This document shows, one piece after another, positions 2,064-62,195 of a stretch of 64,000 bases of DNA. The translations under genes and the position numbers were made by a program. Every line of letters starts with the position of its first letter. The first letter of the stretch is position 1. This stretch comes from Octopus vulgaris. Its lineage: Eukaryota. The notes under the pieces are model-generated. The model was not told the origin of the DNA. It saw nothing but the letters and a program-made list of their open reading frames with translations, and did not search any database. The stretch is taken from the NCBI GenBank assembly GCA_951406725.2, contig OX597832.1, positions 42,718,001-42,782,000 of the forward strand, read 5' to 3'.

Positions 2064-2803
2064 TATTTCTTTATTGCCCACAAGGGGCTAAACACAGAGG
2101 AGACAAACAAGGACAGAGAAACAGATTAAGGAGATTACATCGAACCCAGTGCGTAACTGGTACTTAATTCATCGACCCCGAAAGGATGAAAGGCAAAGTC
2201 GACCTCGGCGGAATTTGAACTTAGAACGTAACGGCAGTCGAAATGCCTATTTCTTTACTACCTACAAAGGGCTAAACACAGAAGGGACAAACAAGGACAG
2301 ACAGACGGATTAAGACGATTACATTGACCCCAGTGCGTAACTGGTACTTATGTAATCGACCATGAAAGGATGAATGACAAAGTGGATCTCGCCGGAACTT
2401 GAACTCAGAAAGTAACGGCAGACGAAATACCTATTTCTTAACTGCCCACAAGGGGCTACACACAGAGGGAACAAACAAGGACAGACAGACGGATTAAGTC
2501 GATTATATCGACCCCAGTGCGTAACTGGTACTTATTTAATCGACCCCGAAAGGATGAAAGGCAAAGTCGACTTCGGCGGAATTTGAACTCAGAACGCAAC
2601 GGCAGACGAAATACGGCTACGCATTTCGCCCGGCGGGCTAACGTTTCTGCCAGCTCGCCGCCTTCTATTAATTCATAAATTGACACCGAACGAATTAAAG
2701 GCAAAGTCGACCTCGAGATATTTAGCCCTCAGAACTTAAAATCTAGCAAATGCCACTAAAGACTTTCTCCGGCACGCTAACGTTTGAGCTAGCTCACCGC
2801 CTT
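2064..2803 (-). mobile_element. SINE family A trimer (one head, three bodies) plus an adjacent degenerate copy
   Basis: Head ggcggcgagctggcagaaacgttagc, B-box-like gagttcaaattcc, and Nin/Deu-like central domain gcctttcatcctttcggggtcgat. Body junctions near 2246 and 2430. Confidence 0.9.
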
Positions 2804-12092: not shown

Positions 12093-12857
12093 AGGTGGTG
12101 AGCTGACTAAATCGTTCGCACGCCGGACAAAATGCTTAGCGGAATTTCGTCCGTCTTTACCACCTTAGTTCAAATACCGTCGACGTCGGCTTAGCCTTTT
12201 ATTCTTTCGGGGTCGATGAAATTGTGTATGATTTGAGCTTTGGGGTCGATAGAAATAAATACGATTTGTGCTCTGGGGGCGATATAATTAATTTACACCC
12301 TTCCCTGAAATTGCTGGCCTTGTGCCAAAGTTTGAAATCATTAATGTTTTTAAGGCGGTGAGCTGGCAGAAACGTTAGCACGCCGGGCGAACTGCTTAGC
12401 GGTATTTCGTCTGCCGTTACGTTCTGAGTTCAAATTCCGCCGAGGTCGACTTTGCCTTTCATCCTTTCGGAGTCGATAAATTAAGTACCAGTTATGCACT
12501 GGGGTCGATGTAATCGACTTAATCCGTTTGCCTGTCCTTTTTTGTCCCCTATATGCTTAGCCACTTGTGGGCAATAAAGAAATAAGAATCGTTAGCACGC
12601 TGGATTATTGTTGTTGCTGCTGTTGTTGTTGTTACTATTAAGGCGACGAACTGGCTAAATCATTAGCACGCCGGACAAGATGCTTAGAGGCCTTTCGTTT
12701 GTCTTTGCGTTCTGATTTCAAATTCCACCAAGGTCGACTTTGCCTTTCATCCTTTCGCAGTCGATAAAAATAAATACCAGTTGAACACTGGGGTTGATGT
12801 AATCGACTCAGTCCCTCTCCTAGTATTGCTGGTCTTTTGCCAAAATTTGAAACCAAT
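12093..12857 (+). mobile_element. Cluster of three SINE A copies plus a head remnant
   Basis: Copies at about 12093-12340, 12354-12585 and 12642-12857. The middle copy's tail runs into another head (agaatcgttagcacgc). Confidence 0.85.
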
Positions 12858-18256: not shown

Positions 18257-18540
18257 GTAACGGTCTACAAGTCAGTATCGTGTCTACAGCAAATCCATAG
18301 AGATAAACTTAAAAGACACAAAAATTTGAATGTTGGACGGTTTGGTTGCTATTTCTATTAAAACTCCTCGTCGGAGAGTTTGTTCTGTTAAGCTAATAAG
18401 ATCTGAAACGAGGGAGATTTTGGATGCCATTTCTTGCGTATCCAGTGACGAAGGAGTGGGTCATTCGTTTAGCTCGTACTTTCTATTGTTAAACCCAGTA
18501 AGAGGCAAATTGAGTGAGTTTTGGATGGTATTTCTTGTAA

Positions 18541-19139
18541 GGCGGAGAGCTGGCAGAGACGTTAGCACGCCGGGCGAAATGCTTAGCGGTATTTCGTCTG
18601 CCGTTACGTTCTGAGTTCAAATTCCGCCGTTCTCAACTTTGCCTTTCATCCTTTCGGGGGCGATTAAATAAGTACCAGTTACGCACTGGGGTTGATGTAA
18701 TCGACTTAATCCGTTTGTCTGTCCTTGTCTGTCCCCTTTGTGTTTAGCCCCTTGTGGGTAGTAAAGAAATAGGTATTTCGTCTGCCGTTACGTTGTGAGT
18801 TCAAATTCCGCCGATCTCGACTTTGCCTTTCATCCTTTCGGGGGCGATAAATGAAGTACCAGTTACGCACTGGGGTCGATGTAATCGACTTAATACCTAT
18901 GTCTGTCCTTGTTTGTCCCCTCTGTGTTTAACCTCTTGTGGGTAGTAAAGAAATAGGTATTTCGTCTGCCGTTACCTTGTGAGTTCAAATTCCGCCGATC
19001 TCGACTTTGCCTTTCATCCTTTCGGGGGCCATAAATGAAGTACCAGTTACTCACTGGGGTCGATGTAATCGACTTAATACCTATGTCTGTCCTTGTTTGT
19101 CCCCTCTGTGTTTAGCCCCTTGTGGGTAATAAAGAAATA
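18541..19139 (+). mobile_element. SINE A trimer with 184-bp period and a single TSD
   Basis: ggtatttc junctions at 18772, 18956 and 19140. TSD ggtatttcttgtaag at 18527-18541 and 19140-19154. Confidence 0.92.
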
Positions 19140-19616
19140 GGTATTTCTTGTAAGCCGCCTGATTATTATGAAAGTCAATCGTTAACTTATACATTCTATT
19201 GTTAATGTTACTAACATGTAAACTGAGCGAGATTTAATCGCCATTTTGTGCGCGTCAACTTACAACACAATGAAAGAGAGAAAAGCTTTCGTTTCTTCGT
19301 ATTCTCAAATTTTTGGAGCCAAAAAGTAGCGAAATGAAGAAGAATTTGGCTGCTATTTCTAGGATGGCAAGTGATCATTCGCACAGTCGTTTATTAGTTC
19401 ATCAGCATCTAACATTTTAATATTTTATAGTGTTGGTCTGTAAATGTAAGATGGAAACATCAATTTGTTTTATAGCTGTCTGACGTAATTCAGCGGTGGT
19501 TTATTTGGACATGTAGAAAAGTGATGTTTTATGGCGTGTCAACTTCAGTAGCTGCAGACGATAATATATATGTACACGTATGCACATATGCATTTGAATA
19601 AATAAGTATATGCAAG

Positions 19617-21702: not shown

Positions 21703-21749
21703 CAATCATATATATACAACAACAACAGCAACAACAATTATAATAATCC

Positions 21750-22712
<963 letters not shown>

Positions 22713-33586: not shown

Positions 33587-34294
33587 CATATTCATATATA
33601 TGTACACACACATAAATATCTATGCTTGTGTGTATGTGTATATACATATATACATATACATATATATGTGTGTGTGTGTATATGCGTATGCATGTATCTG
33701 AATTTGCATATATTTGCATGTATTTGCATAAGTATACACCCACACATACAGACATATGTATGCATGTATGTATGTATGTATGTATGTATGTATGTATGTA
33801 TGTGTATATGTGTAAGTATCAGCGTGTATCTGCATTTGTGTATGTGCGTGCATGTACGTGCGTATGTGTGTATAGATATATTTCAAGTTAACATGTAGAT
33901 ACTTATCTCTCTCCTATCATAAACAACACACGTACACACTTATACACACGTGTATGTGCGTGTGCGTGACAGAGCTTCAGTGTGTCTGCGTATGAACGTG
34001 TGTGTGTGCGTGTGTGTATTATGGATGTAGAGAGGGTAGTTAAGTATCTGCATGTTCGCTTGAAATATATCCCGATGTCCTGAAGTAGAAGCGGTTTAGG
34101 TTTGCTTACTGAAAACATCTTCATTTTCTCGAATGGCAAGTATTAAATTTCATTGACAGGTGCGTAGAGGAGGCCATACGAGTGTTACATGTGATTAACT
34201 GAGTTATGACCAGTATTAACATTTGTGACAGTATCTCACGAAATATTTTAAGGCTTCATCAGTTTATACGTAAGGTGTTGTAGTCACCTTACGA

Positions 34295-34890
34295 ACAGCG
34301 AGCTCGCAGAATCGTTAGCACGCCGGGCGAAATGCTTAGCGGTATTTCGTCTGCCGCTACGTTCTGAGTTCAAATTCCACCAAGGTCGATTTTGCCTTTC
34401 ATCCTTTCGGGGACGATTAAATAAGTACCAGTTACGCACTGGGGTCGATATAATCAACTTAATCCGTTTGTTTGTCCTTGTTTGTCCCTTCTGTATTTAG
34501 CCCCTTGTAGGTAGTAAAGAAATAGGTATTTCGTCTGCCGTTACGTTCTGAGTTCAAATTCCGTCGGGGTCGACTTTACCTTTCATCATTTCGGGGTCGA
34601 TTAAATAAGTACCAGTTATGCACTGGAGTCGATATAATCGACTTAATCCGTTTGTCTGTCCTTGTTTGTCCCTTCTGTGTTTAGCCCCTTGTGGGTAGTA
34701 AAGAAATAGGTATTTCGTCTGTTTTTGTGTTCTGAGTTCAAATTCCGCCGAGGTCGACTTTGCCTTTCATCCTCCGGGGTCGATAAATTAAGTACCAGTC
34801 ATGCACTGGGGTCGATGTAATCGACTTAATCCCTTTGTCTGTCCTTGTTTGTCCCCTCTATGTTTAGCCCCCTGTGGGCAATAAAGAAAT
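34295..34890 (+). mobile_element. SINE A trimer, 184-bp period
   Basis: Junctions at 34525 and 34709. Degenerate flanking duplication taaggtgt(t/c)gta at 34271 and 34890. Confidence 0.9.
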
Positions 34891-36409
34891 AAGGTGTCGT
34901 ATTCCTTTAGTTATTTTGTCGATCCCCCGACATTCGTTATACTCTGAAGTAAAATTTGTTGTTATTGTTGGTGGTTGTGGTGATGTTCGAGTTGTTAGTG
35001 TGTCGGACAGAATGCCTTGCGGTATTTTTGTCGGCCCTTTACCCGCTGAATCCAACAAATCCCGTCGACAGCAACTTTGTCTTGCATTCTATCGTGGTTG
35101 ATAAATTTAAACTATGGTTGTAGATCAGCAGATCAGCAGGGCCATTAGAGCATCTGATAGGCTGATGGTGACGATTGGGCGTGGCTGTTTGGATGCTGGC
35201 AACAACAACCATAGTAAAAGAAAGAGGCACTTCTTGTAATCCCTTAACCCTTTTCGAAATAGCGGTTAAAAACCCATCTAATCGCACCGTACTGCCTTAA
35301 AAATTTAATGGCCGACATTATCAGATGATGTAGCCCCAGATAACATATGCTTTGAAAAGATGTGATCACGGCTAGAATGCATTTTATAATTTTATCATCG
35401 ATGAGCGATGGCTAGAAGGATATTGAGCTTTATTTGGTAACCAGCTGATCTAGCAAGCGGGGCCCCATATCAGTGAGGGGGAGGGGCCGGTGCGCATTGA
35501 TGCCGTCGAAAGGTAGGCCCCGAAACGTTGCACATTCTCTCCTGATGACCCCATACACTTGATGGCTTCCGGTATACGGAGTTATTGACTGGTAGCACTT
35601 GCATGTGCAAGTTGTTTGTAGACATCATAGGGTTTGGCGATCGGGCTTAACCCGAGGCTAAAATTCCTCAACAGTAATAACAACAATTCAATGTAAAGCT
35701 GGCACTTGTTTTATTGTTTTGACACTTGGATTCATTGAAACTAGAAGTGTCACTTCCGATCAAGCAGACTTGTGGACAAAAAGTCCTTAGAATGAATAGT
35801 AAAAATACAAAAATTCAGCAAAGGGAAATAACTCAAAAACGCACGCCATGGATTACGGCAAACCAAAAATGTATGAATGTATTCTATGACGTAACGGAAA
35901 AAATTTAATAAATTAAAATTTTCGTTTTAGCTGGATATAATAATTACAAAAAAAAAAATAAAATAACCCTAGCGGCATTCAGTAGAGACTAACAAAGAAA
36001 AGGGGAGAAAACTTAAGCAGAAAATTAAGAATTAATGTAAACTAAAACAAAGATATAAAAAATTTAAATTCTCATGCTGAAGGGGAAAGTCTTAAAATGA
36101 ATACGGTTGAGCCCGTTTCACATAATTGCTAAATCTAATCAGATTAACGTAAGCTTTTAAGGAAGAAATAAAAAGAATATATATATATATATATATATAT
36201 AATAAAATTTTGAAGAGAAATAACAAGACGTCTCTAATAAAACGAAATACTATATGATATTTGGAGCGAGATTAAAATGTGGCGCCTGTATTAAAGCGAG
36301 CAATTACCAGCATAATTATTCTTCAAGACAGCAACAGCAACAGCAGCAGCAGCAACAACAACTACAACAACAACTACTACTACTACTAGTATTACCACCA
36401 CCACCACCG

Positions 36410-51424: not shown

Positions 51425-51990
51425 GATGGTGAGCTGGCAGAACCGTTAGCACGCCGGGTGAAATGCTTGGCGATATTTCGTCTACCGCAACGTTCTGAAT
51501 TGAAATTCCGCCGAGGTTGACTTTGCCTTTCATCCTTTCGGGGTCGATTAAATAAGTACCAGTTACGCACTGGGGTCGATATAATCGACTGAATCCGTTT
51601 GCCTGTCCTTGTCTGTCCTCTCTGTGTTTAGCCCCTTGTGGGTAGTAAAGAAATAGGTATTTCGTCTGTCTTTACGTTCTGAGTTCAAATTCCGCTGAGG
51701 TCGACTTTGCTCTTCATCCTTTCGGGGTCGATTAAATAAGTACCAGTTACGCACTAGGATCGATGTCTGTCCTTGTTTGTCCTCTCTATGTTTAGCCCCT
51801 TGTGGGCAATAAAGAAATAAGAACCGTTAGCACGCCGGATAAAATGCTTGGCGGTACTTTGTCCGTACTTACGCTCTGAGTTCAAATTCCACCGAGGTCG
51901 ACTTTGCCTTCCGTCTTTCGGTATTAATAAAATAAGTACCAATTGAACACTGGGGTTAATTTAATCGACATAGCTCCTTCCATTAAAAAG
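51425..51990 (+). mobile_element. SINE A chain showing both junction types
   Basis: aaagaaata|ggtatttcg at 51656 and aaagaaata|agaaccgttagc at 51820. Confidence 0.9.
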
Positions 51991-52387
51991 CTAACCCAGT
52001 GCTTCATTTTGAAGCCAATATATTGCTTTGGCCAATTCCTGATTCCTGTATATGATGTTTTGTGTTACCAAGTAAAGGTTTCCTCTATCTGGTTTCCTTT
52101 CTTGTATGATTATTTCTTGTTAAGACACTTTGATATATTTGGTTCTTTCTGTCCTATGTAAAAGTATGTGTCATGATCTTTTCATGTTTACTATAGAATC
52201 TTTGTATTATATAAGGTACTTTCAATACGTTCTGCGACTTATAGGTTTGCACTATCTGAGAACATACCGCAAGGAATTCATGACCAAGAAGAAAAAAAAG
52301 ATTACTAGCGGAAGTTATATAAGTAGCAAAATGCAAGCCAACATGCAAACATGGCTGTGTCGCAAGAAGCTTAGTTATTGCCACACA

Positions 52388-59210: not shown

Positions 59211-60730
<1,520 letters not shown>

Positions 60731-61969: not shown

Positions 61970-62195
61970 GTTTCTTTATTAGCCACACAGGGCTGCACAC
62001 ATACAGAACAAATTACAAGGTAGAGCTTTTCTTTTAAGGGTAAAAAAAAGGGGGTTGGTTTTCGATCAAAACGGATCGTAAAAGGAAAGAAAGAGGACAA
62101 AAAAGGGGAGGATTTAAAAAAAGGGGGGGGGAGGGAAAAAAGAAAAGGGGAAAGGAAAAAAAAGTTGATCAATAGGGATCGTAATCACAGAAATG
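61970..62195 (-). mobile_element. Putative LINE 3' UTR fragment inside (GATA)n
   Basis: Ends cagccctgtgtggctaataaagaaa, similar to the SINE A tail. Pyrimidine-rich on the minus strand; (GATA)n on both flanks. Confidence 0.55.

Follow-up and report, generated by a model that had tools for sequence, protein, structure and literature searches.

The young short interspersed element (SINE) of Octopus vulgaris studied here forms chains in which a single head is followed by several bodies, and we think it quite probable that these chains are the product of nested insertion into resident SINE heads, plus some local duplication. According to the mechanism that we propose, the SINE would insert repeatedly by target priming at position 48 (or 15) of resident heads, with enzymes supplied by a LINE of Tx1/L1 type whose tail is near-identical and which occupies that base as well. 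The new cDNA would anneal to the homologous resident head, which would avoid an extra head and lengthen the chain by 184 bp, or by 217 bp where site 15 is used. Local duplication would afterwards have produced about a fifth of neighbouring units. The choice of site follows the tail subfamily, its likeliest cause being a lax nick together with pairing of a read-through 3' flank, a preference that could be passed on.

The window is a stretch of 64,000 nucleotides (G000:C19:42718001-42782000), and the genome searched comprises 2.8 Gb in 227 contigs. About 2 Mb was sampled, 844 kb of it picked blind to the repeat (the window, L071-L090 and L181-L238); all frequencies come from this unselected set. 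Loci L001-L070, L091-L180 and L239-L343 were picked by junction or tail patterns and yield no frequencies. The unit census leaves out the overlapping loci L002, L003, L091, L115, L142, L143, L151, L152 and L171, and from the comparison of B1 last units on, L102 and L103 are dropped as repeats of L101.

Published octopus SINEs are OK, OR1 and OR2, and CORE, Deu/Nin and Meta are SINE superfamilies. The present element is 231 nt long, short, non-coding, dispersed, present in high copy number and bounded by target-site duplications (TSDs), as is expected of a SINE. Its four families, A, B1, B2 and C, have head and core in common and differ in their 3' part; A is the youngest. The unselected DNA holds 83 tails, which extrapolates to about 275,000 genome-wide, and SINEs are given as 11.6% of a 2.8-Gb octopus assembly in the accessible part of a published account (PMC13282606). 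A text search of the literature with a 12-nt core word of the element returned no relevant paper. ARAGORN found no tRNA genes in the SINE sequence; the first 92 nt of a monomer from the window fold with a z-score of -3.1, though not as a cloverleaf. The motifs that we take to be A-box-like and B-box-like were assigned by eye against the Pol III consensus. The unit consensus has no run of four T, and thus no T4 terminator.

The join between one SINE tail and the next SINE body is both common and fixed. A 20-mer spanning the junction from tail to head position 48 has 39,269 exact matches in the genome, against none for the reversed control. In the unselected DNA, 29 of the 83 tails join at position 48, 5 join at position 15, 44 end in flank and 5 lie in damaged junctions, broken by small deletions, so that about 47% (39/83) sit in SINE-head junctions. 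Each junction at site 48 adds a unit of 184 bp, and each at site 15 adds 217 bp. A five-letter preference alone does not account for this share, because only 73 of the 1,179 GGTAT words in the 844-kb set are site-48 heads or units starting GGTAT. TSDs were detected in 50 of 123 elements, bounding 23 of 48 arrays and 27 of 75 monomers. These outer duplications measure 10-25 bp (most 12-17), begin at the tail end in 35 of the 50 cases, and enclose the head and the last tail, whatever family that tail belongs to.

An initial annotation of the window had described three trimers with a 184-bp period and one head each, and further chains rejoined at the same internal site. TRF and BLAST searches with the first unit bear this out (position 1 occurs once, then 48), and BLAST places a restart at 48 in the chains at 21875 (minus strand) and 51656 (plus strand) as well. 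Its expectation that junction positions would not be dispersed also holds across the 844 kb, with two sites, 48 and 15, in place of one. Beyond that annotation lie the position-15 junction class, the older-family last units and the coupling of tail variant to landing site. The features of the window are collected in Table 1.

Table 1. SINE arrays, related copies and a LINE 3' end in the window (positions are those of the window)
Feature	Position	Strand	Remarks
Trimer	2064..2662	-	Units 11-15% apart, no rare variants in common
CAAT-tail monomer, then 19 nt of head positions 15-33	12354..12603	+	Second junction class; join at 12585
18.5-kb trimer: upstream TSD, 15 bp, GGTATTTCTTGTAAG	18527..18541	+	Identical to 19140-19154; last G is also the first head base
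18.5-kb trimer: single SINE head, positions 1-47	18541..18587	+	A-box-like motif about 18551-18561
18.5-kb trimer: unit 1, positions 48-231, tail of TAGT subfamily	18588..18771	+	
18.5-kb trimer: unit 2	18772..18955	+	3.3% from unit 3; tail of unit-1 type (TAGT)
18.5-kb trimer: unit 3, TAAT-tail subfamily	18956..19139	+	
18.5-kb trimer: downstream TSD, GGTATTTCTTGTAAG	19140..19154	+	First 8 nt equal head positions 48-55
Chain: head + A, joined at 48 to damaged unit ending in older-family tail	21720..22090	-	Join at 21875
Trimer	about 34294..34891	+	Units 8-14% apart; last unit of CAAT subfamily
Chain: head + A, 48:A, then 15:C (older family)	51425..52030	+	Joins at 51656 (48) and 51820 (15)
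LINE family 1 3' end (Tx1/L1-type)	61971..62190	-	Last 42 nt resemble SINE tail, then (TATC)n

The 18.5-kb trimer illustrates how mixed the origin of one array can be. Its B-box-like motif (about 18614-18625) falls in the repeated unit and its A-box-like motif in the single head, so only the first unit has both boxes. Unit 1 differs from units 2 and 3 at the subfamily columns 71, 125, 128 and 171-175, while all three carry rare variants at 91, 92 and 120, each present in 0.6-1.5% of copies; the unit distances are 0.076, 0.087 and 0.033. Unit 2 is likely to be a local duplicate, made by unequal exchange or conversion, and unit 3 is likely to be the original resident, whose insertion produced the outer TSD. 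TAAT tails of this kind have GGT next in 9 of 11 flank cases. In the simplest history, unit 3 would have inserted first, into a target starting GGTATTTC; unit 1 would have entered the head of unit 3; and exchange within the array would have given unit 2 and the shared tract. The exact 15-bp TSD, whose resemblance to the internal site had been pointed out in the initial annotation, mimics the junction because its tail subfamily prefers targets starting GGTA everywhere.

In the other arrays of the window the units are less alike. The head of the trimer at 2064-2662 is the C48 variant, yet its junctions read G48, and no rare variants are common to the units within this trimer, or to those within the trimer at 34294-34891. 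The chain at 51425-52030 is bounded as a whole by a TATTGCTTTGG duplication, and a rare C at position 19 is common to its head and its last unit, an old C copy. This chain is a nested insertion into an old resident, and the nesting is seen directly. Elsewhere in the window, a lone 69-nt SINE tail (59839-59907) is followed by GGTAG and has neither head nor core; it is a 5'-truncated copy.

The census of chains extends this picture. Inner units are nearly always A, and last units are A, B1, B2 or C. B1 last units diverge from their consensus by 0.061 (n=79; free B1, 0.056, n=20), and the first A units of the same arrays, at 0.037 (n=72), are younger (p=2e-4). C last units have diverged by 0.115, and both C and B2 last units are older than B1. 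Only 3 of the 79 B1 last units have a neighbour closer than the consensus, so these star-like units are not copies of a few masters. A units within one array mix subfamilies, and across arrays there is no shared unit order and there are no position-specific diagnostics beyond base 48 and the tail. The arrays thus lack a shared position-specific ancestry, and the single trimer master that the initial annotation had weighed against its own reading drops out. That annotation had also raised the question of whether units within an array are closer to each other. They are in 39 of 174 adjacent pairs, which lie less than 4% apart (0.1 expected); the other 135, at 4% or more, follow the spread of random pairs. 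Because of the old last units, the star-like B1 units, the mixed subfamilies and these 39 pairs, the sequences argue that most units came separately, into older residents, and that about a fifth of neighbouring units were duplicated in place afterwards.

Long arrays are the exception. No chain in the unselected sample exceeds four pieces and most arrays have 2-3 units; among the targeted loci, the longest chains have 11 (L239) and 7 units (L240), both ending in B1. The suggestion that the arrays are a route from SINE to satellite is borne out to the extent that some arrays, with up to 11 units, have private variants common to their units (homogeneous long arrays are L239, L051, L054 and L070), but not for the 2-3-unit majority. 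Four or more homogeneous middle units, the mark of a SINE-derived satellite, were found at few loci only, all targeted (L239, L240). Other tandem arrangements were also encountered. One four-unit array occurs three times within 152 kb (L101-L103, G000:C1:22.15-22.30 Mb), likely through segmental duplication. At G000:C1:12697594-12698363, four full SINEs recur with a 247-bp period (231 + 16) and the same non-SINE 13-mer after each; this TSD-(SINE-TSD)n array is a second array type. Tandem arrays of the head piece only (64-66 bp) lie at G000:C10:17996023-17996500 (8 matches) and G000:C14:84691115-84691409 (5 matches).

Insertion into a resident head would be expected to leave two heads, and such products exist. 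The pattern of site 48, 1-7 nt and a new head has 89 exact matches. Among eight that were fetched, four (L335, L336, L337 and L339) show head 1-63, next a full SINE and next the sequence from 48 on; in three others a 16-nt piece stands between tail and new head; and the last (L340), which has two heads but nothing of a unit downstream, was probably copied from a two-headed source locus. The other loci hold three clear two-headed cases at site 48 and one at site 15, against 267 distinct site-48 junctions. Full-length insertion with a duplication of about 16 bp therefore happens, in about 1% or less of outcomes.

What becomes of the second head in the remaining cases can be judged from letters that mark the resident. 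These start at the junction: T19 is found in 14 of 16 B2/C units joined at 15. The heads of B2/C chains joined at 15 also carry the resident T19 in 8 of 12 cases, against 12 of 66 monomers (p=0.001), and L134, L065 and L030 have private resident variants doubled on both sides, in resident duplications of 25-50 nt. In dimers, by contrast with what a plain TSD would give, the first unit shares 0 of 13 rare variants with the resident at 48-64, and where the B1 resident has TT, the first unit lacks it in 15 of 16 cases; array heads are mostly of the young type. A plain TSD model fails because first units so rarely carry resident letters at 48-64, and replacement of the resident head must therefore be assumed. 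Such a mix of young and resident letters would result if the cDNA annealed to the homologous resident head and the point of exchange varied. Joining of LINE 5' ends by annealing to a target overhang is a pathway described in the available text of earlier work (PMC4245944), of which annealing to a resident head would be an extension. A possible alternative source of the single head is a later deletion between two 63-bp heads.

Some smaller irregularities accompany the junctions. The last six tail bases are doubled before the junction in 9 of 100 listed TAGT cases, and also in L266, L269, L107 and L117; CAAT tails double a seven-base form. Slippage as reverse transcription starts would produce such doubling. 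At G000:C5:55220225, C1:145553082 and C5:34147058, only 9-12 nt of tail stand before site 48, preceded by head to 57, 73 or 88; these are either very short insertions whose duplications vary, or internal deletions. Although 6-8 nt of the tail end are complementary to site 48, a hairpin at the junction was dropped as a candidate, since folding was no better than for shuffles (z -0.17; LINE 2 junction, z 0.80).

A likely source of the enzymes emerged from a low-stringency search with the SINE tail, which led to a LINE 3' end that matches the tail at 76-86% over 42 nt. The 1146-aa ORF of this LINE family 1 has the Pfam domains Exo_endo_phos, RVT_1 and zf-RVT, and among solved structures is nearest to L1 ORF2p (E 2e-50, against 4e-19 for R2); its target is (TATC)n. 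A second family, with an ORF2 46-60% identical to that of family 1, is found at site 48: 85 of the 100 matches listed (of 108) to its tail pattern end in ATT, and by hand count at least 82 of these run into site 48. At L343 (G000:C3:153111900-153118799), a 5.3-kb family-2 copy with broken frames lies between head 1-63 and site 48, flanked by a 16-bp duplication and with C48 on both sides. Its tail equals the CAAT SINE tail at 42 of 48 columns. The LINE-in-SINE unit at L343 is, with its flank, itself tandemly duplicated with a 6,450-bp period. The SINE tail is common to LINEs of both families, and the LINE targets are a repeat or a microsatellite. From tail and shared site, it is likely that Tx1/L1-type LINE enzymes move the SINE, where "Tx1" is a label that we presume from architecture and target habit. 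In a homolog search, the best relative with a name is an Argonauta protein; none of the 120 homologs listed is a named Tx1 protein, and an Atlas search with the LINE protein returned RT/endonuclease clusters only. The partner of each SINE tail subfamily is a candidate only: the LINE 2 tail is closest to the CAAT subfamily, whose SINEs mostly go to site 15, and no LINE was found at site 15 among the listed matches of the two tail patterns searched. Another LINE, at L068:6770-9320, with a 724-aa RT frame ending before (TAA)n, has RVT_1 as its only Pfam domain and is presumably Dong/R4-like, judging from its motifs; it was rejected as a partner, its 3' end being unlike the SINE tail.

Together, the LINE at the same base, the two-headed products and the tails at 48 support the earlier suggestion that the element prefers a site inside itself. 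The old last units, the resident letters and the two-headed products likewise support self-insertion with a 5' end resolved by homology.

The tail subfamily and the landing site are tightly coupled. Exact 28-mers number 22,103 for TAGT tails at 48 and 188 at 15, against 507 and 1,808 for CAAT tails (odds ratio 419). The same bias appears outside SINEs. In hand counts of the first 100 cases listed per tail, duplicates included, the non-SINE flank after a TAGT tail starts with GGTA 25 times and AGAA once, with 6 damaged junctions, and that after a CAAT tail starts with AGAA 33 times and GGTA twice; TATA comes next in about 28 and 20 of the 100 listed flank insertions, respectively. Among 33 non-CAAT elements the upstream TSD copy starts with GG in 14 and with AGA in none; among 17 CAAT elements it starts with GG in none (p=0.002 for the GG contrast) and with AGA in 3. 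Since this copy starts with GG according to tail class, the landing motif belongs to the target. CAAT tails are also followed by AGAAACTGAAAGA in 5 of 100 listed places (three in one duplicated region), e.g. L273; this sequence resembles part of another common repeat, which may be a third target.

Two accounts of this coupling have to be weighed. We tentatively suggest, as a prospect close to even, that the SINE inherits its landing site through RNA, the read-through flank pairing with the nicked target. In the accessible portion of work on R2, such pairing of a read-through 3' flank with the target raises insertion (PMC6795142). Three results point to the flank: the CAAT-like tail of LINE 2 at site 48, the use of the two head variants, and the lack of a T4 terminator along with the ends of L024 and L026, which break off inside the next unit after 29 and 26 nt, with a TSD beyond. 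As to the head variants, C48 makes up 12 of 58 heads, and an age difference as the cause of its avoidance is ruled out, C48 heads being as old as G48 heads (0.034 vs 0.035, p=0.98). SINE-tail junctions nevertheless number 330 with C48 against at least 22,610 with G48 (C about 1%), whereas LINE 2 junctions have C48 in 50 of 85 listed. This opposite usage of head variants by SINE and LINE is a hint of pairing by the RNA flank. The match of TSDs to the read-through sequence fades after +5, and the TATA class at both tails is explained by the flank model only through other source loci or tail microhomology. If the model is true, copies nested at 48 would send offspring to 48 and those at 15 to 15, and target specificity would be a self-propagating, protein-independent trait of SINE subfamilies, seeding satellite-like arrays.

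The other account keeps nested insertion but leaves the choice of site to the endonuclease alone, each tail subfamily having its own LINE, one cutting at 48 and the other at 15. LINE family 2 is indeed nearly site-specific for 48, as family 1 is for (TATC)n, and in the part of the crocodilian report open to us, one target has two sites that are split among Tx1-Mar families and among SINEU subfamilies (PMC4494074). It is harder to reconcile with a LINE whose CAAT-like tail goes to 48 when CAAT SINEs go to 15 or AGAA, with C48 heads under LINE 2 in 50 of 85 listed cases against about 1% for SINEs, and with the lack of any LINE at site 15 among the tails listed. A LINE family for site 15, so far unseen, may exist, and this would count against the flank model. 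Overall we regard site choice by the endonuclease alone as a real possibility, somewhat on the doubtful side; this estimate concerns that version of site choice, the nested-insertion core being common to both readings.

A different reading does without repeated insertion. Multimeric source RNAs, in which one promoter reads through the units and reverse transcription starts at the last tail, would pass the junction on by inheritance and would account directly for the coupling of tail and junction. The missing T4 terminator, the mostly young heads and the likeness of L024, L026 and L340 to copies of array RNAs agree with this reading. Some arrays may have travelled as whole RNAs, to judge from the TSDs of B1-ended arrays. 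These have 18 mismatches in 387 sites; A elements, with 19 in 746, have TSDs that are not clearly younger (p=0.08), and the TSDs of free B1, with 6 in 71, look older. Since 3'-truncated chains mostly lack a TSD (present in 2 of 27 arrays and 1 of 39 monomers), long read-through copies are rare. As a general explanation we consider multimeric RNAs unlikely: last units are old and unrelated between loci, the order of units varies by array with no position-specific diagnostics beyond base 48 and tail, and this reading accounts neither for upstream TSD copies with GGTA or AGAA outside SINEs nor for two-headed products with a duplication of site 48. It is likely, all the same, that copying of multimeric RNA operates for a minority of arrays.

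Less probable still, to the point of being rather improbable, is an origin at the DNA level without reverse transcription, in which a break in a resident head is repaired from a dimer elsewhere, or units multiply by unequal crossover. Exchange of this sort is visible in the 18.5-kb trimer, and it would suit the 39 near-identical pairs among 174, the homogeneous arrays L239, L051, L054 and L070, and the somewhat greater share of young-type letters at 61-64 in B1 units joined at 48 (T61 in 31 of 51, against 11 of 15 free B1). It leaves unexplained the target motifs at non-SINE sites, the LINE copies at the same base, the two-headed products and the resident letters, which begin no more than 5-12 nt from the junction. 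The initial annotation had also put forward template jumping, or rolling reverse transcription of a circular RNA, here of 184 nt. Either would make an array in one event and suit the period of exactly 184 bp and the homogeneity of some arrays, but both can be set aside for most arrays as very improbable, given mixed subfamilies, 135 of 174 adjacent pairs at least 4% apart, chains (even the homogeneous 11-unit one) that end in older families, the second class of 217 bp, and an Rfam scan of the trimer that, up to E 10, matched neither a ribozyme nor any other family, so that neither ribozyme nor uniform units mark these arrays as retrozymes or other circular-RNA retroelements.

Nested insertion of a SINE into its own head has partial precedents, which we know from the openly available text of the papers cited. 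Crocodilian SINEU and Tx1-Mar LINEs insert in Mariner-N4_AMi (PMC4494074). There, as in the octopus, a SINE and Tx1-type LINEs share preferred sites in a repeat, two sites are split by subfamilies, and sequential insertion gives tandem copies (PMC4494074). The crocodilian target is a DNA transposon and its tandem full elements keep the TSD between them, whereas the octopus target is the SINE's own head: insertion renews the site and leaves no second head, the 3' tail is common to SINE and LINE, and about 47% of tails lie in junctions. In a mollusc, the clam Scapharca broughtonii, HCD-SINE arrays have the form TSD-(SINE)n-TSD, with one complete head and head-truncated repeats, and likewise sometimes include other families (PMC11481361). 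They differ in making up about 3% of the clam SINEs, in inner units that lack part of the tail, and in the unequal recombination suggested as their origin; a self-targeting site or a partner LINE is not described in the available portion of that account (PMC11481361). Squamate sSat (PMC10702118) and limpet PcH-sat, derived from Nin-SINE (PMC11121367), resemble the octopus arrays in their tandem SINE portion and in the greater uniformity of longer arrays. Their origin is ascribed to unequal recombination or left open in the text at hand, whereas the octopus seed arrays are dispersed, bounded by TSDs and have a fixed insertion start. Work on R2 and other LINEs offers the closest parallels to the steps proposed, in that pairing of the RNA 3' flank aids insertion and 5' ends anneal to an overhang (PMC6795142, PMC4245944). 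It deals with autonomous or engineered elements at a fixed target, and heritable, subfamily-specific choice by a SINE does not figure in the portions available (PMC6795142, PMC4245944).

Our literature search, with Repbase, Dfam, subscription papers and supplements outside its scope, returned no paper on a SINE (and LINE) targeting the SINE's own head, or on this in octopus. One-head SINE arrays, SINE-derived satellites and SINE-LINE pairs that target another repeat were known already. New here are the second site, the coupling of tail and site (also outside SINEs), the contrast between SINE and LINE in the head variant used, and a census that covers resident units, two-headed products and local duplicates.

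These results bear on how SINEs are annotated and on how non-LTR elements choose their targets. It would be wrong to annotate the dimers and trimers of this genome as subfamilies, and one element combines copies of different age. Two natural subfamilies and two head variants offer a handle on the roles of endonuclease and RNA-DNA pairing in non-LTR target choice, a question that bears on R2-type gene insertion tools. For the octopus genome, the SINE itself is a landing pad for the SINE and likely for its LINE partner, and by extrapolation from the 844-kb set roughly 100,000 small arrays have been seeded. Self-targeted insertion that seeds arrays, some of which then expand locally, would be a concrete way, open to testing, in which a dispersed SINE gives rise to tandem DNA.
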